In this document: piece by piece, positions 2,207 through 36,589 of the stretch
Position numbering within the stretch: the first letter of the stretch is position 1
Layout: each line of letters opens with the position of its first letter
Source of the DNA: an uncultured Pseudoxanthomonas sp.
Lineage (GTDB): Bacteria; Pseudomonadota; Gammaproteobacteria; Xanthomonadales; Xanthomonadaceae
Direction of reading: 5' to 3'
Assembly (NCBI GenBank): GCA_964425695.1
Contig: CAYRNF010000001.1
Span: 395,093 to 459,092 of the forward strand
DNA: 64,000 nucleotides
Translations under genes and position numbers: made by a program
Notes under the pieces: generated by a model
Seen by the model: only the letters and a program-made list of their open reading frames with translations
Databases searched by the model: none
Told to the model about the DNA's origin: nothing

Positions 2207-4758
2207 CGCCGCCTGCCGCAGCGCAGCCGGCGGACGCTGCGCCGGGCGGCGCGGGCGTGCCGCGCGCGCGGCGCCGCCACGACGCGCCCCTGGCGGACTG
2301 GTTCGGTGCGCGCGGCTGGACGCCCGCACCGTTCCAGCGCGAGGCGTGGCGCCGCTACCGCAACGGCGAGTCCGGCCTGGTGGTCACGCCCACCGGCAGC
2401 GGCAAGACGCTGGCGGTGTTCGGCGGGCCGCTGCTGGAAGCGCTGGCCGCCGGTGAACACACGACGCCGCCGCCGAAGACGAAGCGCGGCACGCCCGTGA
2501 CCGCACGCACCCGCGTGCTGTGGATCACGCCGCTGCGCGCGCTGGCCCACGACACGGCGCGCGCGCTGCGCGATCCGATCGAGACGCTGGGCCTGCCGTG
2601 GACGGTCGCGATGCGCACCGGCGACGCCAGCGCCCGTGACCGACGCCTCGCCCGGCAGGGCCGCGCCGACGTGCTGGTGATCACGCCCGAATCGCTGGCG
2701 CTGCTGCTGAGCTATCCGGATACGCAGGCGCAGCTCGCGGGGCTGCGCACGGTGGTGGTGGACGAGTGGCACGAACTGCTGGGCAACAAGCGCGGCGTAC
2801 TGCTGCAACTGTGCCTGGCGCGGCTGCGCGCGTGGTCGCCCGCGCTGCGCACCTGGGGCGTGTCGGCCACGCTGGGCAACCTGGCACAGGCGCGCGACGT
2901 GCTGCTGCCGCATGTGCCGGAGGCGGCGATCGTGCAGGCCGCACGCCCGCGTTCGCTGGTGCTCGAAACGCTGCTTCCGGAGGAAGGCGAACGCTTTCCG
3001 TGGGCGGGCCACCTGGGCCTGTCGCAGGTGCAGCGCGTGGTCGCTCGCCTGCAGCACGCGCGCAGCACGCTGCTGTTCGCGAACACGCGTGCGCAGGCCG
3101 AGCTGTGGCATCGCGCGCTGTCGTCGGTGTGGCTGGACGATCCGGCCACGCTCGCCCTGCACCACGGCTCGCTGGATCCCGCGCTGCGCCGCGCCGCGGA
3201 ACAGGGCCTGCGCGACGGTTCGGTGCGCTGCGTCGTGGCGACTTCAAGCCTGGACCTGGGCGTGGATTTCCCGGCCGTGGACCAGGTGCTGCAGATCGGC
3301 AGCCCCAAGGGCATGGCGCGGCTGCTGCAGCGCGCCGGGCGCGCCCGCCATCGGCCGGGCGAAGCCGGGCACATCGTGTGCGTGCCCACCCATGCGCTGG
3401 AACTGGCCGAGTACGCGGCCGCGCGTGAGGCCCTGCGCGAAGGCGAGGTGGAAGCGCGCCCGCCACCGACGCTGTCGCTGGACGTGCTGGCGCAGCACTG
3501 CATCACCCTGGCGCTGGGCGGCGGCTTCAACGCCGACGCGCTGCTGGCGGAAGTGCGCGGCACGCACGCGTTCGCCGCGCTGACCGACGTGCAGTGGGCG
3601 GCGGTGCTGGCCTTCATCGTGCAGGGCGGGCAGGCGCTGCAGCACTATCCGGACTTCCGCCGCGTGGTGCGCGATGGCGACGGCCTGTATCGCGTGCACG
3701 ACCGGCGCATCGCGTTCCGCCACCGGCTGTCCATCGGCACCATCGCCAGCGACGGGTCGATGCAGGTCAAGCTGCTCAAGGGCGGCGGGCTGGGCAGCGT
3801 GGAGGAAAGCTTCGCCGCGCGGCTGCGTCCCGGCGACCGCTTCCAGTTCGCGGGCCGCACGCTGGAGCTGGTGCAGCTCAAGGAGATGACCGCCTACGTC
3901 CGCGTGTCCAAACGTGCCGATGGCACGGTGCCGCGGTGGCAGGGCGGGCGCATGCCCATGTCCACCGCGCTGGGCGCGCGCGTCGCCGCGGTGCTGGCCG
4001 CGCCGCCGGACGTGCCGGAGCTGCGCGCGCTGGCGCCGCTGCGCGAGCTGCAGCAGCGCCTGTCCGCGCTGCCGGGCGCGCAGGTGCTGCTGGCGGAATT
4101 CCTGAAGACGCGCGAGGGGTGGCACCTGTTCCTGTATCCGTTCGCCGGGCGCGCCGTGCACGAAGGGTTGGCCGCGCTTCTGGCGCTGCGCTGGAGCCGG
4201 CGTGCGCCGAACAGCTTCGCCTTCGCGGTGAACGACTACGGCCTGGCCCTGACCGCACAGGCCGAGACGGAAATCGATGCCGACACGCTGCGCGCGCTGC
4301 TGTCGCCCGACGCGCTGGCCGACGATCTTGCCGAAGGCCTCAACCTGACCGAGCTCGCCCGCCGCCAGTTCCGCGAGGTCGCGCGCGTCGCCGGGCTGCT
4401 GCCGCCGTCGCTGCCCGGGCGCGCCGCGCGCAGCCTGCGCCAGCTGCAGGCCTCCAGCGGCCTGCTGTTCGACGTGCTGCGCCAGCACGATCCCGACCAC
4501 CTGCTGCTGCAGCAGGCCGCGCGCGAGGTGTTCGAGGCGCAACTCGACGTGCAGGCGCTGCGCGCGGTGCTGGAGCGCTGCCACGCGCAGGCGCTGCACC
4601 TGCACCATCCCGCCACGCTCACGCCGCTGGCGTTCCCGCTGTGGGCCGAGTCCATGCGCGGCACGCTCAGCAGCGAGGACTGGAAGACCCGCGTGGAACG
4701 CGCGGCACGGCAGCTGGATGCGCGCCATGCGCGGCGCCGGGGCGGACGCCGTGGGTGA
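2203..4758 (+). CDS. Lhr-like DEXH-box helicase (ligase-associated DNA damage response helicase)
   Basis: Walker A VVTPTGSGKTL and DEWH box VVVDEWHEL. A helicase C-terminal domain is followed by the Lhr-core C-terminal extension. The start ATG overlaps the ligase stop. Confidence 0.85.
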   Translation: MTPPAAAQPADAAPGGAGVPRARRRHDAPLADWFGARGWTPAPFQREAWRRYRNGESGLVVTPTGSGKTLAVFGGPLLEALAAGEHTTPPPKTKRGTPVTARTRVLWITPLRALAHDTARALRDPIETLGLPWTVAMRTGDASARDRRLARQGRADVLVITPESLALLLSYPDTQAQLAGLRTVVVDEWHELLGNKRGVLLQLCLARLRAWSPALRTWGVSATLGNLAQARDVLLPHVPEAAIVQAARPRSLVLETLLPEEGERFPWAGHLGLSQVQRVVARLQHARSTLLFANTRAQAELWHRALSSVWLDDPATLALHHGSLDPALRRAAEQGLRDGSVRCVVATSSLDLGVDFPAVDQVLQIGSPKGMARLLQRAGRARHRPGEAGHIVCVPTHALELAEYAAAREALREGEVEARPPPTLSLDVLAQHCITLALGGGFNADALLAEVRGTHAFAALTDVQWAAVLAFIVQGGQALQHYPDFRRVVRDGDGLYRVHDRRIAFRHRLSIGTIASDGSMQVKLLKGGGLGSVEESFAARLRPGDRFQFAGRTLELVQLKEMTAYVRVSKRADGTVPRWQGGRMPMSTALGARVAAVLAAPPDVPELRALAPLRELQQRLSALPGAQVLLAEFLKTREGWHLFLYPFAGRAVHEGLAALLALRWSRRAPNSFAFAVNDYGLALTAQAETEIDADTLRALLSPDALADDLAEGLNLTELARRQFREVARVAGLLPPSLPGRAARSLRQLQASSGLLFDVLRQHDPDHLLLQQAAREVFEAQLDVQALRAVLERCHAQALHLHHPATLTPLAFPLWAESMRGTLSSEDWKTRVERAARQLDARHARRRGGRRG

Positions 4759-30142: not shown

Positions 30143-31360
<1,218 letters not shown>

Positions 31361-31432
31361 GTCATCGTTCCTTGTGATGTTCCCGCAGGAGCGGAAGACC
31401 GATCGCGGCGGCTCCGTCCGCCGCAAACGGGG

Positions 31433-32569
31433 TTACTGCTTCATCGTCACCAGCTGCTTCAGCACGCCATCCAGGCCGCCGAACACGGTGAGCTTGTCGA
31501 TCTTCTCGGTGACCTTTTCCAGCGCCTCGAGCTCCTTCAGGCGCATCAGCACCGGCGACTCGTCGATCAGCCTGGCGGTGTTGAGCAGCGAACGCGTGGC
31601 GTTGGCCTCCTCGCGCCGGCGGATCAGGTTGGCTTGCGCCGTCTTCTCCGCCTGCACCACCGCATTGAGGATCGCCTTCATCTCGCCCGGCAGGATCACG
31701 TCCTTCACGCCGACGTCCAGCACCTCAACGCCGAAGCCGCTCAGCTGGCCGCGCACGTAGGCGAAGATGTCGGCGTCCAGAGACGCCTTGTCGCCCAGCA
31801 GCTCGTCCAGCGTCTTGGCGGAGACCGCCTTGCGCAGGCCGTACTGCAGTTCGCGGTAGACGAAGTCGCCGACCTTCGCGACCTTGGTGCGCGCCGCCAC
31901 CACGTCGGTGATGCGTGTGCTGGCGGCCAGGTTCACGCGCAGGCTGACCTTGTCGCGGGTCAGCAGTTCCTGGCCCGAGACCTCGATCGTCTGCACGCGC
32001 AGGTCGACCACGTCCACCACCACGTTCTTCCGGAAGTTCCAGAAGGCGTAGCTGCCCGGGGCGAGCGTGCGCGCCAGCTTGCCGTCGATGAAGACGAGGC
32101 CGGCGAACATCTCCGGCACATCGGCCACCACGGCCAGCTTCGACAGCATGCCCAGCTGGCGCAGGCGGCGCGCGACCGCGGCGTCGACCTCCAGCGAGGT
32201 CAGCGACACTGCGCGCACCTCGACCTTGACCAGGCCGATCCAGTACAGGCGACGCGTGCCGGGCGCCAGCACGTCTTCCAGCTTGCCGTTCTTCAGCACC
32301 AGGCCAACCTCGTCCACGCCGATGTCGCCCAGGACAAAGGTCTCACCCAGCCGCGCGCCCAGGCGCGCGATCAGCGCGTCGACGTCATGGCCGGCGTATT
32401 CCGGTGCGGCGATGTTGAACGTGCGCACGTCGATCCGACCCATCGGGTCAAACCAGCGGTACACGCCCGGTGCGAGCACGCGCTCGAACCGACGGTTGCG
32501 ATACACCAGGCCGCGCTCGCCGTCACCGATCACGACCCGCTTGGTCAAGTACATGCGGTAGAAACGCAT
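31433..32569 (-). CDS. SPFH/band-7 (slipin-like) domain protein
   Basis: AGGAGG SD upstream. SPFH-like core with a coiled-coil, EA-rich C-terminus (AVVQAEKTAQANLIRRREEANAT). A 72-bp gap separates it from rtcB on the same strand. Confidence 0.75.
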   Translation of the reverse strand: MRFYRMYLTKRVVIGDGERGLVYRNRRFERVLAPGVYRWFDPMGRIDVRTFNIAAPEYAGHDVDALIARLGARLGETFVLGDIGVDEVGLVLKNGKLEDVLAPGTRRLYWIGLVKVEVRAVSLTSLEVDAAVARRLRQLGMLSKLAVVADVPEMFAGLVFIDGKLARTLAPGSYAFWNFRKNVVVDVVDLRVQTIEVSGQELLTRDKVSLRVNLAASTRITDVVAARTKVAKVGDFVYRELQYGLRKAVSAKTLDELLGDKASLDADIFAYVRGQLSGFGVEVLDVGVKDVILPGEMKAILNAVVQAEKTAQANLIRRREEANATRSLLNTARLIDESPVLMRLKELEALEKVTEKIDKLTVFGGLDGVLKQLVTMKQ

Positions 32570-32941
32570 GGCGTTGTCCTCCTTGTTGGCTCTGGTGGTT
32601 CGATCCACGTTGTGAACACCGCCGCGCGGGATCGAATGACGCGGCGGAGTGGCTGCAGGCCGCAGCGATGCGGCCGACGAAAGAAGGTGGAAACGCCCCT
32701 GGACGAAAGCGGTGCGGACGCCCGGCGCTGTCGGCGGAGGCCTCGTGGCGACGAGGCGATCCGCAGATCGCGTCGAACGCCGCGTGCATCCGCGTCGAGG
32801 GCGCGGTGCCGGCACCACTCCCGCTGCGTTGCGTCGTCTTCCCGCACTCCATCGCGGATGTTCGGCGCGCCGCACGGGGCGTTTCCCGGTTGGGACTTGC
32901 GTCCCGGTTGTCATGACGTGAAAGGTCATGTGCCTGTTACG

Positions 32942-33015
32942 GCGTTGGAGCGGGAATCGAACCCGCGACCGTCGGATTGAACGTCCGATGCTCTAACCAT
33001 CTGAGCTATCCAGTG
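32942..33015 (-). tRNA. tRNA-like gene (74 nt), anticodon undetermined
   Basis: Canonical D arm (TAGCTCAGATGGTTAGAGC) and T arm (GCGGGTTCGATTCCCGC). The anticodon stem is TCGGA/TCCGA but the loop CGTTCAA has G33, and the acceptor shows 2 mismatches by hand folding. Confidence 0.5.
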
Positions 33016-33088
33016 GCTGACGTGCCAGAGTCGAACCGGCGACCTGCGCAACTTGCGTCGCGCCGCTCTGCCTCTGAGCCAACGTCAT
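33016..33088 (-). tRNA. tRNA-like gene (73 nt), anticodon undetermined, directly abutting the previous one
   Basis: D arm GGCTCAGAGGCAGAGC and T arm GCCGGTTCGACTCTGGC are canonical. The anticodon region GCGCGACGCAAGTTGCGCAGG does not fold as a canonical 5-7-5 arm by hand. Confidence 0.45.
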
Positions 33089-33883
33089 CGTGAAGCGACT
33101 TCGTGCGGTATCGGGCATGCACCACGGCAACGCCGCGCGCACCGGGCGGGCGTGGCAGCACCACGAACCCGCACCGCAGGACACCGTCGGCTCGACGCTT
33201 CGCATCACCGCCATCGCTGGCGGCAATCCGTGTGCCGGCGCGCAACCGCCCGCCGCCCGTGCCCGGCATCAGGGCACAGCGTTCTTTCGCGCACCTGCCG
33301 ACCGTGAGGGCCGGCATTGCAGCAGCAACGCCTTGCAGCGGAACTCCCTGTCACGGCCCTTGCGGACCGGATGCCCGGGATGCGGAAAACACCGGCGAAT
33401 ACGTGCTTGTCTCTCTTCGCGAACGCGCAAAAACAAAACGCCCCCGGATGCGGCATCCGAGGGCGTTCGCGCTTCCTCGGAAGATCGGGGTCGCCGATCT
33501 CCCGTGGGCGGGAAGATCAGCAGGTGGTGGCCAGCAGCGCCTTGCGACCGCCGCGATTCGGGCGATACGCGCATGCGAACGCGCGTGAGCCGCGGCTTTC
33601 GGGCCGCAGTTCGAACGCGTTGGCGATGCAGAGGCGATGGGTCATGGACATATCGTGGTGTCGCTTGTCGCGGATGCGACGAAGGGCGCGGACAATACGC
33701 GCGTGCATGCTCGCGTGCAACCTCAGCGCAGTGCGTGTTGCGCGTTTTCCCGACGGACGGTTGCCTGCATCGCCATGCACGGCGATGCCCGCTTGCTTCG
33801 CTCGCGATCACCACACGCGTGGCATCGGCAGGGGAGCTGCCTGAAGGACGAAGCGGATCGTCGCGATCAGGTGGGCGTGCGCG

Positions 33884-36589
33884 TCAGTCCAGCTCCGGCA
33901 ACGACTGGTGGGTCTGCGCGTAGCCATCCCACGGATCGGCCTTCAGCGTCTTCGCGCGCTTGAGCGCCTTGCGCAGGTCGAACGCATCCGGTCCGCCCAC
34001 GCGACCGAGTTCTTCCCAGCGGATCGGCATGGCGACCGGCGCGCCGTCGCGTGCCCGCAGCGACCAGCTGCACACGCTGGTGGCGCCGCGGCCGTTGCGC
34101 AGCCAGTCGATGAAGATGCGGTCGTGGCGCTTGGCCTTGCTCATGGTGGCGACGTACTGCAGGGGCCGGTGCGCGGCCATGGCCTCGGCGAAGGCGCTGG
34201 CGAAGTCCTTGGCCTGCTCCCACGACGGGCCGCGCCGGATCGGCACGACCACGTGCACGCCCTTGCCGCCGGACAGGCGCACGAAGCTCTGAAGCCCTGC
34301 CTCCTGCAGCCGTGCGCGCACGTCGCGCGCGCCGGCCACGACCTGCTTCCACGACGCGCCCGGCCCCGGGTCCAGGTCGAACACCAGCGTGTCCGGCCGT
34401 TCCGGCTTGTCCACGTGCGCGCCCCACGGGTGGAACTCCAGCGTGTTCATCTGCACCAGTTCCAGCAGGCCCGCGGCGTCGCGCACGAACAGGTAGTCCT
34501 CGGGGCCGCTCTTCTGCCGCAGGGACACGGCGTGGACATGCTCGCCCAGCGATCCGGCGTGATGCTTCTGGAAGAAACACGTCCCGCCGGCGCCGTCGGG
34601 ACAGCGCAGCAGCGACAGCGGACGCCTGGCGAGGTCCGGCAGGATCCAGTCGGCGACGGCCGCGTAGTAGTCGGCGACCTCGCCCTTGGTGATGCCGTCG
34701 GCGGCGAACACGATGCGTTCGCGGCTGCTGATCGCGACTGCGTCCCTGCCCGCGCGCCGCGACGATGCGGCAGCGCGCTTGCGCGGCGGCGCTTTCGCGG
34801 CCGGTTCGGAGGCGGTTGTGGCAGGCGCGCGCGCGGTGGATGCCTGGGTCGTGCCGGCCATGCCGATGTCCTCCACGGTCTTGTCCACGCGCAGCCGCTG
34901 GAAGCTGGCCTGGCGCAGCAGGCCATCCTTGCCCCAGCCGCGATACGCCACCTCGGCGACGAGCTGCGGTTTCACCCAGTGGATGTTGCCGCGATCGCGC
35001 TTGTCGTGCGGCAGGTGACCGGGCAGTGCCACGGTGGCGGTCTTGCGCCGCAGCGGCTGCAGCTTCGCGTGCAGGGCGCGCAGCGTGTCGGCCGTGTAGC
35101 CGGTGCCGACGCGGCCCACGTAGCGCAGCGTTCCGTCCACATCGCGCGTGGCCATGAGCAGCGCGCCGAATCCGCTGCGTGCGCCCTGTGGCGGGGTGTA
35201 GCCCACCACCACGAACTCGTCGCCCTGCGCGTGCTTGGTCTTGACCCAGTGCGCGCTGCGCGACTGGGTGTAGGGCGCGTCGACGCGTTTGCTGATGATG
35301 CCTTCCAGGCCCTGCACGCCGCTGGCGGCGAAGACTTCCTCGCCGTGGCCGCGCACGTGCTGGCTGTAAAGCAGCGCGTGGCCGGGCGCGCCCCCGAGCA
35401 GCGCCTCCAGCAACCGCTTGCGCTCCAGCAGCGGCGTGCGCGACAGGTCCACGCCGGCCAGCCCGGGCAGGTCGAAGACGACGTAGCGCAGGGCCGGCGT
35501 GGAAGTGCCGGCGGATGCCGTCCGGGGCGGACCCTGTAGCGCGCGCTGGAGCAGGGCGAAGTCGCTCATGCCGGCGGCGTCGAGCGCGACCAGTTCGCCG
35601 TCCAGGCGTGCGTCGCCAACCGGCAGGGCCTGCACGGCTGCGGCCAGCGCCGGGAAGTCGGCGGTCCAGTCCAGGCCATTGCGCGAACGCAGCCTGACGG
35701 TGCCGTCCACCAGGTCGGCGAGCATGCGGTAACCGTCCCACTTCACCTCGTGCAGCCAGTCGTCGCAGCGCGGCGCGTGCTGGCGCAGCGTGGCGAGCTC
35801 GGGCTTGAAACCGGGCGGGAAGGGGCGGTCGCGGGCCTGGGGCAGGGCCAGGGCGCGCTTGCGCCAGGCCGCGTCGCTGCGGCGCGCGGGTGCTGCAGGC
35901 TTGCGTGCGGGTTGGGACGCGGCCGGCGCGCGCGCTCCGGTCCGCTGTTTACGCGCGCGGTCGGCTGCCGCGCCGCGCGCAGGGGCGCTGCGTTCGCCTT
36001 CGCCAGACAGCAGGATTCGCCCTGCGCGCGCGGAGGATTCCGGCCCCGGTTCCACGTCCACCATATCGTCGGCGTCAGCATCGCGCGCATGCGCGTCGTC
36101 GCGCTTGATCAGCAGCCACTGCGGCTTGCCGCCGCTGCGGCCGGTCTGCATGCCGGTGCGCACCAGTTTCCACGCGCCGCGCAGCTTTGCGCCCTCCAGC
36201 GTGAAGTCCAGCTTGCCCGCGGCGATCGCCTCCAGCGGATCGCCCTCGCTCGCCCACACGCCGTGGTCGAAGACCAGTACGTGCCCGGCGCCGTAGTTGC
36301 CTTCCGGGATCTCGCCCTGGAAGCCGGCATAGGAGATCGGGTGGTCTTCCACCTGCACGGCCAGGCGCTTCTCGCCGGCGCGCAGCGACGGGCCCTTCGG
36401 CACCGCCCAGCTCTTGAGTGCGCCGTCGGCTTCCAGCCGGAAGTCGTAATGGCGGGCGCGCGCGTTGTGCAGCTGGACCACGAAAATGGGGCGGCGCGCC
36501 TTGCAGCCGCGCGTGGACAGCGCCGCGTCGTCCGCGGGCTCCGGCGTGTCGGAGAAGCGACGCTTGCTGGCGTAATCGCGCAGGCTCAC
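33884..36589 (-). CDS. ligD: Multidomain ATP-dependent DNA ligase LigD (phosphoesterase-ligase-polymerase)
   Basis: N-terminal PE domain (TPEPA...FVVQLHNARARHYDFRLE), a ligase core (KxDG: VKWDGYR) and a C-terminal primase-polymerase domain. 901 aa; GTG start. Confidence 0.9.
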   Translation of the reverse strand: MSLRDYASKRRFSDTPEPADDAALSTRGCKARRPIFVVQLHNARARHYDFRLEADGALKSWAVPKGPSLRAGEKRLAVQVEDHPISYAGFQGEIPEGNYGAGHVLVFDHGVWASEGDPLEAIAAGKLDFTLEGAKLRGAWKLVRTGMQTGRSGGKPQWLLIKRDDAHARDADADDMVDVEPGPESSARAGRILLSGEGERSAPARGAAADRARKQRTGARAPAASQPARKPAAPARRSDAAWRKRALALPQARDRPFPPGFKPELATLRQHAPRCDDWLHEVKWDGYRMLADLVDGTVRLRSRNGLDWTADFPALAAAVQALPVGDARLDGELVALDAAGMSDFALLQRALQGPPRTASAGTSTPALRYVVFDLPGLAGVDLSRTPLLERKRLLEALLGGAPGHALLYSQHVRGHGEEVFAASGVQGLEGIISKRVDAPYTQSRSAHWVKTKHAQGDEFVVVGYTPPQGARSGFGALLMATRDVDGTLRYVGRVGTGYTADTLRALHAKLQPLRRKTATVALPGHLPHDKRDRGNIHWVKPQLVAEVAYRGWGKDGLLRQASFQRLRVDKTVEDIGMAGTTQASTARAPATTASEPAAKAPPRKRAAASSRRAGRDAVAISSRERIVFAADGITKGEVADYYAAVADWILPDLARRPLSLLRCPDGAGGTCFFQKHHAGSLGEHVHAVSLRQKSGPEDYLFVRDAAGLLELVQMNTLEFHPWGAHVDKPERPDTLVFDLDPGPGASWKQVVAGARDVRARLQEAGLQSFVRLSGGKGVHVVVPIRRGPSWEQAKDFASAFAEAMAAHRPLQYVATMSKAKRHDRIFIDWLRNGRGATSVCSWSLRARDGAPVAMPIRWEELGRVGGPDAFDLRKALKRAKTLKADPWDGYAQTHQSLPELD

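Follow-up and report, generated by a model that had tools for sequence, protein, structure and literature searches.

RNA-repair operons built around the RNA 3'-phosphate ligase RtcB are widespread, and the natural substrates and cofactors of the bacterial enzyme are largely unknown; for the branch that carries a Band-7 (SPFH) gene, an RNA partner has so far only been predicted. The YrlA Y RNAs contain tRNA-like domains, carry tRNA modifications, are cleaved by RNase P and are extended with CCA (PMC4201824). Y RNAs of the rsr-yrlBA-rtcBA arrangement are co-transcribed with the operon, yet act as ribonucleoproteins (PMC7790460, PMC4201824), and Hughes et al. have suggested that the YrlA tRNA-like domain might competitively inhibit an anticodon nuclease (PMC7790460). 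A b7a-tRNA (short for band 7-associated tRNA) was predicted by Burroughs and Aravind in 2016 beside Band-7 and RtcB genes; according to the secondary account by Wang et al. it was not validated, "strongly resembles an authentic tRNA" and may be functionally redundant with YrlA (bioRxiv 10.1101/312249). The Pseudomonas aeruginosa rtc locus contains an SPFH gene (PMC13086221), in an Anabaena trcR mutant slipin and rtcB are de-repressed together (PMC10272220), and the leader peptide PA5471.1 of P. aeruginosa controls the RtcB-like ArmZ upon ribosome stalling (PMC12057347). Here we describe a pair of abutting tRNA-like elements upstream of a slipin (Band-7) gene and rtcB in a window of 64,000 nucleotides (nt) from an uncultured Pseudoxanthomonas sp. 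(assembly GCA_964425695.1, contig CAYRNF010000001.1, 395,093-459,092). Coordinates are positions in this window, and all of its features given below lie on the minus strand.

On comparative evidence, both elements are tRNA-mimic modules belonging to a conserved structured RNA, which makes up the 5' part of a slipin-rtcB RNA-repair operon. An earlier note on this DNA had described them as two head-to-tail tRNA-like elements with unusual anticodon and acceptor regions; its sequence-level statements all hold, and ARAGORN calls both elements, with an overlap of one base. The upstream one, unit 1 (33015-33088), is returned as tRNA-??? with a 2-base 'anticodon'. It has a D arm (33079-33065), a T arm (33040-33024) and an acceptor of 6 base pairs (bp; TGACGT/ACGTCA, 33087-33082/33023-18). 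As the note had stated, the 27-43 region cannot form a 5-bp stem with a 7-nt loop; it is instead an anticodon-less arm (33063-33046) with a 7-bp stem, GCGCGAC/GTTGCGC, and a GCAA tetraloop. Pair 1-72 is likewise confirmed as A:G, and the true acceptor stem is the 6-bp one, followed by G-CCA (33017-33014), of which the CCA overlaps the first bases of the next unit.

The downstream element, unit 2 (32941-33015), is called tRNA-Glu(ttc) by ARAGORN. It comprises a D arm (33006-32990), an anticodon-type arm (32988-32972; stem TCGGA/TCCGA, loop CGTTCAA, G33), a T arm (32966-32950) and a conserved 4-bp acceptor (TGGA 33012-33009 / TCCA 32949-32946). The full acceptor strands, CACTGGA/TCCAACG, carry A:C and C:A mismatches at 2-71 and 3-70; stem, loop, G33 and both mismatches are as first reported. 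The Rfam search that the earlier note had proposed gave a divided answer. The tRNA model RF00005 matches unit 2 at 51.1 bits (E=4.9e-8 over 64 kb; gathering threshold 29 bits) and does not match unit 1, even at E<=10. The YrlA model RF02553 aligns weakly from the T arm of unit 1 through the junction to the D arm of unit 2 (25.3 bits, E=0.008; gathering score 69). With gathering and E-value thresholds, Rfam gave only these tRNA and YrlA-like matches at the locus, and a blastn search of the intergenic region against plasmids returned ordinary tRNA bodies only.

For comparison, 80 related loci were retrieved via the slipin protein, and 80 sequences were aligned with MAFFT (alignment A1). By blastn, 79 of the 80 related Lysobacterales genomes have the pair on the strand of slipin, ~370-500 nt upstream of this gene, an arrangement well beyond chance; three of these loci show only the terminal T-arm segment. 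Under a model of two cloverleaves, 91.3% of the cells are paired, against 83.4% in shuffles and 32-45% in slid controls, and both sides have changed in 25 of 41 pairs, a count reached by none of 500 shuffles. The four helices of unit 1 covary across the 80 sequences, as do all five pairs of the anticodon-type stem of unit 2. Without a supplied structure, RNAalifold recovers the acceptor, D, inner and T stems of unit 1 and the D, anticodon-type and T stems of unit 2, with compensatory changes at 19 of the 30 predicted pairs. The outer three acceptor pairs of unit 2 are unpaired in ~80% of sequences and the inner four are conserved; because these four are kept by compensatory change in Photobacterium (AGGA/TCCT) and Burkholderia (UCGG/UCGA), the 4-bp acceptor can be taken as real.

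Both units conserve U8-A9, the GG of the D loop (G18-G19), A26, a 5-nt variable region and the T loop TTCRAnT, residues that by their positions are the builders of the tRNA elbow. Together with predicted stacking of acceptor and T stems, U8/A9, G18-G19 and the T-loop sequence, all kept in both units, are features that give a tRNA its L shape and let tRNA-binding proteins recognise it. Decoding is another matter. In the orthologues, the inner arm of unit 1 always has a loop of 4-5 nt, mostly of GNRA type (GCAA, GAAA, GCGA), and NCCA follows its acceptor stem in ~54 of the 80 sequences, so it is not universal. The 7-nt loop of unit 2 occurs in more than 40 different sequences among the 80, several copies having a 6-nt loop or a base other than U33. 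ARAGORN, run on 60 loci, reads this unit as at least 17 isotypes, Asn, Ser, Tyr, Gln, Leu, Lys, Cys, His, Met, Ile, Pro, Thr, Gly, Phe and Arg among them. Since unit 1 has no anticodon loop and the loop of unit 2 evolves freely, the units do not appear to be decoding tRNAs; decay is ruled out by purifying selection with compensatory changes. As far as the alignment tells, both are tRNA-shaped, and neither is a decoder or a decaying gene.

The pair is part of a larger structured RNA and lies within a leader of ~1.1 kilobases (kb). The entire stretch from the end of ligD to slipin is conserved in blocks, and our own covariation scan on 79 aligned sequences is the source of the helices given here. 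The domain 5' of unit 1 (33092-33380) contains seven helices, each with 3-8 covarying pairs and 89-98% pairing: 33378-70/33270-63, 33369-65/33358-54, 33278-73/33263-58, 33227-18/33214-04, 33201-194/33099-092, 33186-81/33111-06 and 33172-68/33150-46. The fifth of these ends three bases 5' of unit 1. The domain also contains the core motif, GGTGCGCG-N13-GTGCATGCC (33114-33143), which can be drawn as an irregular helix (G-C, G-C, U.G, G.U, C.A, G.U or G-C, C-G, G-C) with a 3-bp hairpin cap. Among 133 Lysobacterales and metagenome sequences, 119 have the motif in near-invariant form, and its inner hairpin covaries (GGC/GCC, GGA/UCC, GGG/CCC). With its invariant U.G, G.U and C.A pairs, the core helix may be a protein or ligand site.

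Directly 3' of unit 2, the sequence CATGAC-CTTTCAC-GTCATG (32912-32930) forms a predicted mimic of an anticodon stem-loop, with a 7-nt loop, U33 and A37, and all six of its pairs covary. A hairpin with these features is found in 63 of the 79 sequences, the 'anticodon' being GUC in 31, GUA in 10, UUC in 10, GUU in 6, GUG in 2 and another triplet in 4; a distal 'codon' partner covarying with this loop was sought and none was found. Next comes a GNRA-capped hairpin, GGGAC-GCAA-GTCCC (32892-32905), which is 100% paired and varies as GGGAC, GGAAC, GGGC or GGAGC; a similar hairpin follows the tRNA-like unit in Burkholderia. The domain 3' of the pair (32689-32886) is closed by a long-range helix, GGAAACGCCCC (32886-76) / GGGGCGTTTCC (32699-89), of 11 bp with 6 covarying pairs, 94% pairing and variants visible in the alignment. 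Inside it, the scan places helices at 32810-07/32720-17 and 32793-89/32738-34.

Loci outside Lysobacterales were found with tblastn of slipin against plasmid and chromid records. In Photobacterium, a sigma-54-type promoter is followed by the same tandem before slipin (RF00005 54.1 and 46.4 bits; 113.8 bits with our covariance model R1). In Burkholderia cenocepacia (R1 67.4 bits), a sigma-54 promoter is present, the first unit is reduced to acceptor and T arm, and GAAA caps an arm of the second; in Subdoligranulum, slipin is preceded by two T arms and a GAAA-capped stem. In Citrobacter and Escherichia coli there is only a T arm before slipin and a nucleotidyltransferase after it, and rtcR is divergently encoded in Citrobacter. 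This enterobacterial version (Citrobacter freundii, locus L081, 4700-4860; E. coli, locus L082, 4470-5000) combines a sigma-54 promoter, a single-T-arm leader and a nucleotidyltransferase in place of rtcB. The sigma-54-type promoter before the RNA in Citrobacter, Burkholderia and Photobacterium, together with the divergent rtcR of Citrobacter, suggests that the RNA belongs to a damage-induced transcript.

The core motif, as GGTGCGCS-N13-GCGYATRCC, stands just 5' of the first unit in Lysobacterales, Photobacterium, Subdoligranulum and Burkholderia (there with a longer spacer), and is not seen in the enterobacterial versions; copies elsewhere lie at ~4646-4677 in locus L084 and ~4605-4636 in locus L085. 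A metagenome scan for core motif plus T-loop, made without protein information, gave 54 loci. Where at least 400 nt of downstream sequence was present, slipin lay downstream on the same strand in 46 of 47, at ~360-530 nt (up to ~1,090 nt in four loci), usually followed by rtcB and a nucleotidyltransferase. Rfam returned no match on 16 metagenome representatives. In viral contigs, the core motif alone gave 66 matches, close to our own rough chance estimate, and none of them beside a tandem; the motif alone is unspecific, and phage carriage is not supported. One viral contig, IMGVR_UViG_2571042020_000009 (L106, 3893-4068, plus strand), matches R1 over its full length at 79 bits, far from the chance motif match, and may simply contain two adjacent phage tRNAs.

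In members from Firmicutes a 3' motif, GGATACCG, recurs ~60 nt ahead of the start codon of slipin. In the window, a conserved GGATCGAACC (32597-32606) lies ~30 nt 5' of the slipin ribosome-binding site (RBS), and its sequence complements the T-loop region GGTTCGAT in both units, over 8 bp in the case of unit 2. This could be an alternative pairing that couples the tRNA-like fold to translation, or GGATCGAACC may be what corresponds to GGATACCG in Lysobacterales.

The host group of the window is Lysobacterales: the GC content is ~71%, and the best protein matches come from Pseudoxanthomonas, Luteimonas and Lysobacter. The slipin gene (31433-32569, 378 amino acids; Pfam Band_7 116 bits) starts 372 nt 3' of the pair, on the same strand, behind an AAGGAGG RBS at 32584-78, and its homologues bear the name 'slipin family protein'. 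An open reading frame (ORF) of 498 codons that abuts the pair was also considered; its 5' part is spurious, the true start being the one at 32569 behind AAGGAGG. Residues 155-363 of the protein are stomatin-like, and no membrane anchor is recognisable in it. Its first ~150 residues, before the stomatin-like part, hold three similar beta-rich repeats (LAPGVYRWF, LAPGTRRLYW, LAPGSYAFWNF), which may be vault-like. Directly 3' lies rtcB (30143-31426, 427 amino acids; Pfam RtcB 415.9 bits over the full length), in an order retained in 76 of the 80 related loci. Neither slipin nor RtcB matched the defence-system models of PADLOC.

Just upstream of the RNA-repair locus is ligD (33884-36589), full length with phosphoesterase, ligase and primase-polymerase domains; it adjoins the locus in 1 of the 80 related loci, and the adjacency is probably incidental. 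Among the neighbours examined in the window (ligD, slipin, rtcB, an extracytoplasmic function (ECF) sigma factor and an FtsX permease) there is no TROVE (Ro60/rsr) protein. At two Pseudoxanthomonas loci, ARAGORN reports over-long (~90 nt) tRNA-like calls ~3.4 kb downstream of slipin (L006, 9551-9642, plus strand; L007, 9510-9599, minus strand).

Between ligD and the structured RNA, the 33426-33720 block is probably a translation-sensing attenuator of the RNA-repair operon, specific to Lysobacterales, to judge from conserved helices and reading frames. At its 5' end lies a candidate promoter, TTGCAC-17 nt-TATTGT (33687-33720), a putative assignment that did not pass a stricter sigma-70 consensus scan; the orthologues have an A-rich tract upstream, and the block TTGC...GCGTAnnGTSCGCGSCCTTCGCC is conserved at 90-100% in 77 sequences. 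No sigma-54 promoter was found in the subset of Lysobacterales leaders scanned, unlike in Burkholderia, Photobacterium and Citrobacter. The leader ORF (33517-33651) has a conserved ATG at 33645, an upstream ATG at 33651 and a TGA stop at 33519-17, and would encode the peptide MTHRLCIANAFELRPESRGSRAFACAYRPNRGGRKALLATTC. Its ATG falls in one alignment column in 73 of the 77 sequences, and in each of these 73 the reading frame stays open and in register. The leader ORFs have 30-48 codons, with 15 lengths and 69 distinct peptides, and stop 11-22 nt before the first hairpin. Asp, Asn, His and Tyr codons show a weak excess in the leader peptide (16.9% against 12.9%) that is confounded by a conserved GAC-UGA in region 0, and we make no claim from it.

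After the ORF follows a chain of mutually exclusive helices (33426-33525), identified from conserved helices and a terminator scan: helix 0:1 (33522-12/33502-492), helix 1:2, the first hairpin (33503-494/33488-479), helix 2:3, the antiterminator (33481-75/33462-56), and helix 3:4, the terminator (33468-56/33448-36), which is followed by a U tract and was found by the terminator scan. Helix 0:1 has 6-12 bp in 76 of the 77 sequences and 5 bp in the other, shuffles having a mode of 4-5 bp, and region 0 holds a stop triplet in 68 of the 77. In the proposed scheme, a ribosome at the leader stop codon would mask region 0, so that helix 1:2 and the terminator form; if the ribosome stalls or is absent, helix 0:1 would form instead, along with the antiterminator 2:3, and the RNA and the repair genes would be transcribed. 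With the stop codon inside region 0, read-through would be expected when the leader is untranslated or its translation stalls. The arms of the terminator (33468-33436; GAACGCCC / GGGGGCGTTTT) also resemble the strands of the long-range helix, GGAAACGCCCC (32886-32876) and GGGGCGTTTCC (32699-32689), and swapped long-range pairings over ~550-780 nt are possible.

To bring these features together, we propose that the RNA is co-transcribed with slipin and rtcB and would play a bacterial Y-RNA-like role. The near-invariant core helix and its flanking domains would dock cytosolic slipin, RtcB or both; tRNA-like surfaces would be offered by both tRNA-shaped domains and by the anticodon-arm mimic downstream of them; and these surfaces could attract tRNA-directed enzymes, retain them or compete for them (RtcB, RNase P, the CCA-adding enzyme, modification enzymes and anticodon nucleases). 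In Lysobacterales, the leader-peptide attenuator would gate synthesis, with read-through when translation of the leader ORF is impaired. Taken as a whole, the explanation that a tRNA-mimic RNA acts as a Y-RNA-like scaffold for slipin and RtcB could equally well prove right or wrong, and the scaffold mechanism itself we advance tentatively, at slightly less than even confidence. Several observations weigh against it. The AlphaFold2 model of slipin (mean predicted local distance difference test (pLDDT) 60, predicted template modelling score (pTM) 0.34) is too poor for a fold search or for judging RNA binding. The terminator scan found no terminator between the structured RNA and slipin, and in Firmicutes the conserved structure reaches almost to the start codon; both facts are equally compatible with a purely cis-acting leader. 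In Firmicutes and enterobacteria the tRNA-like units are reduced to bare T arms, so the family can do without full mimicry. Its essential parts may be the T-loop module and the core helix, and the full cloverleaves a lineage elaboration.

The cis-acting possibility deserves consideration, unlikely though we think it. The modules would then be processing or stability elements or a riboregulator of the slipin-rtcB mRNA (entry sites for RNase P, RNase Z or RNase E, 5' protective structures, or control of slipin translation), without a separate ribonucleoprotein role. The RNA is indeed always on the same strand and directly upstream of slipin with no intervening terminator, the Firmicutes GGATACCG stands ~60 nt from the start codon, and GGATCGAACC, ~30 nt 5' of the RBS, is complementary to the T-loop GGTTCGAT. 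Unit 1 also has what bacterial RNase P recognises: a 6-bp acceptor, a 5-bp T stem and, in about two thirds of sequences, NCCA. However, RNase P signals need no D arm, elbow, covarying anticodon-type stem or second unit; a core helix that is near-invariant from Firmicutes to Proteobacteria looks more like a specific binding site than a processing site; and the Y RNAs of rsr-yrlBA-rtcBA are also co-transcribed, yet act as ribonucleoproteins (PMC7790460, PMC4201824). It is distinctly improbable, in our estimate, that the units and the mimic serve as bait or decoy for tRNA-targeting toxins, either titrating anticodon nucleases or being cut themselves and so signalling damage and giving RtcB a substrate in cis. 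What speaks for it is the tRNA-type hairpin with a 7-nt loop, U33 and A37 in 63 of 79 orthologues, with GUN as 'anticodon' in 49 and UUC in 10. GUN marks the anticodons of the queuosine tRNAs (Asp, Tyr, Asn, His), which are cut by colicin E5. Such cuts are resealed by RtcB, which the operon encodes, and for YrlA Hughes et al. raised inhibition of an anticodon nuclease (PMC7790460). The mimic is absent, however, in 16 of the 79 (a Dyella-type group among them) and in Photobacterium, Burkholderia and Firmicutes, and the lack of constraint on the unit 2 loop would be surprising in a bait. A long shot goes further and makes the whole 1.1-kb leader a self-contained device that senses and answers RNA damage: the attenuator would switch the operon on when translation falters; the transcript would provide, in cis, the two tRNA-shaped domains as decoys and the GUN hairpin as a bait, to be cut in place of or alongside cellular tRNAs by colicin E5-type nucleases; and slipin would be a cytosolic cage that carries them via the core helix, with RtcB as the resealing enzyme. 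If true, this would be a bacterial vault-like RNA-repair particle, its RNA both sensor and substrate mimic.

Readings that take the pair as tRNA genes, past or present, are already contradicted. Two genuine but unusual tRNAs, for example a tRNA-Glu(UUC) with G33 and a non-canonical one, in decoding or in tRNA-dependent biosynthesis, would account for the ARAGORN call and the 51.1 bits of unit 2 and for the NCCA after unit 1 in most orthologues. We give this virtually no chance: unit 2 spans at least 17 isotypes, with some 6-nt loops and non-U33 copies and only four conserved acceptor pairs, unit 1 ends its inner arm in a tetraloop, and the position is fixed in an operon leader. The earlier note had allowed that its hand folding missed a canonical solution, but the departures are real and conserved (the tetraloop arm of unit 1, the 4-bp acceptor and free loop of unit 2). 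Its other proposals were degenerate remnants marking an integration site, and an unusual dimeric RNA of ~150 nt closed by a common helix; decayed integration tRNAs or a single fold of this kind are exceedingly improbable. The complementarity of the outer ends, CGTTGG/CCAACG, is present in the window as described, and the weak YrlA-like alignment (25.3 bits, E=0.008) spans the junction. Across the alignment, however, pairing is seen in 48.8% of cells for the common closing helix and in 67.2% for the junction hairpin, together 55.9%, which is the shuffle mean, and RNAalifold predicts neither; the complementarity is a chance feature of this genome. As for remnants, compensatory changes exclude decay, and the place and orientation of the pair, like its secondary structure, are kept in Xanthomonadaceae, Rhodanobacteraceae and a Photobacterium; it always lies 5' of slipin, while the genes further upstream of the conserved leader differ by locus. 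The idea of a dimeric tRNA-like RNA survives in spirit but not as a ~150-nt fold with a shared helix: the units are better described as independent cloverleaves within a larger RNA of an RNA-repair operon.

Whichever role proves correct, this locus and ~130 relatives supply a structure backed by covariation and a set of landmarks, namely the core helix, two kinds of tRNA mimic and the anticodon-arm mimic, and the scaffold, decoy and leader hypotheses make a role for an RNA cofactor in bacterial RtcB repair directly testable. For experiments, the enterobacterial slipin-nucleotidyltransferase version is a tractable one. The comparison further suggests that Lysobacterales swapped RtcR/sigma-54 control for a translation-sensing leader-peptide attenuator, which, if true, would couple tRNA or ribosome damage directly to the induction of repair. 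There is also a practical side to the family: tRNA finders call unit 2 almost any isotype, and such calls contaminate both counts of tRNA genes and the hunt for suppressor or odd tRNAs. Rfam 15 holds no model of the tandem, the GUN anticodon-arm mimic, the cross-phylum core helix or the ~1.1-kb leader with its attenuator, and the family merits one.

How the locus relates to known systems differs from part to part. Both the canonical tRNA (RF00005) and the units here have the cloverleaf, the elbow residues of D loop and T loop and the 5-nt variable region, and unit 2 has the 7-nt loop as well; unlike a canonical tRNA, however, the units have an unconserved anticodon, acceptors of 4 bp (unit 2) or 6 bp (unit 1) rather than 7, a tetraloop in unit 1, and a site inside an mRNA leader. 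For the attenuator, PA5471.1/armZ of P. aeruginosa is the closest precedent in logic that we can name by analogy; it and the trp/his-type attenuators likewise have a short leader ORF followed by terminator and antiterminator alternatives. Unlike in PA5471.1, the sequence of which is unrelated, the stop codon here lies within an extra region 0, and the transcript begins with a ~900-nt structured RNA. YrlA (RF02553) is similar: it is a non-coding RNA with a tRNA-like domain of T arm and D arm, it is a proposed RNA-repair cofactor, and in some species it is transcribed together with rtcB under the control of RtcR and sigma-54. It differs in that here the partner is slipin instead of Ro60, rsr is not among the neighbours examined, and two unpermuted cloverleaves with their own acceptor stems occur without the long Ro-binding stem; the RF02553 score, 25.3 bits, falls short of the gathering score of 69. 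For the combination of two unlike units, anticodon-arm mimic, core helix and attenuator we found no description, the b7a-tRNA being known to us through its secondary description. Compared on that description, the b7a-tRNA shares with the locus an adjoining Band-7/SPFH gene, an RtcB neighbourhood and the resemblance to tRNA, all of which are present here. Unit 2 fits the description exactly, and the pair, matched to that description and not to the original alignment, very probably belongs to the b7a-tRNA kind.

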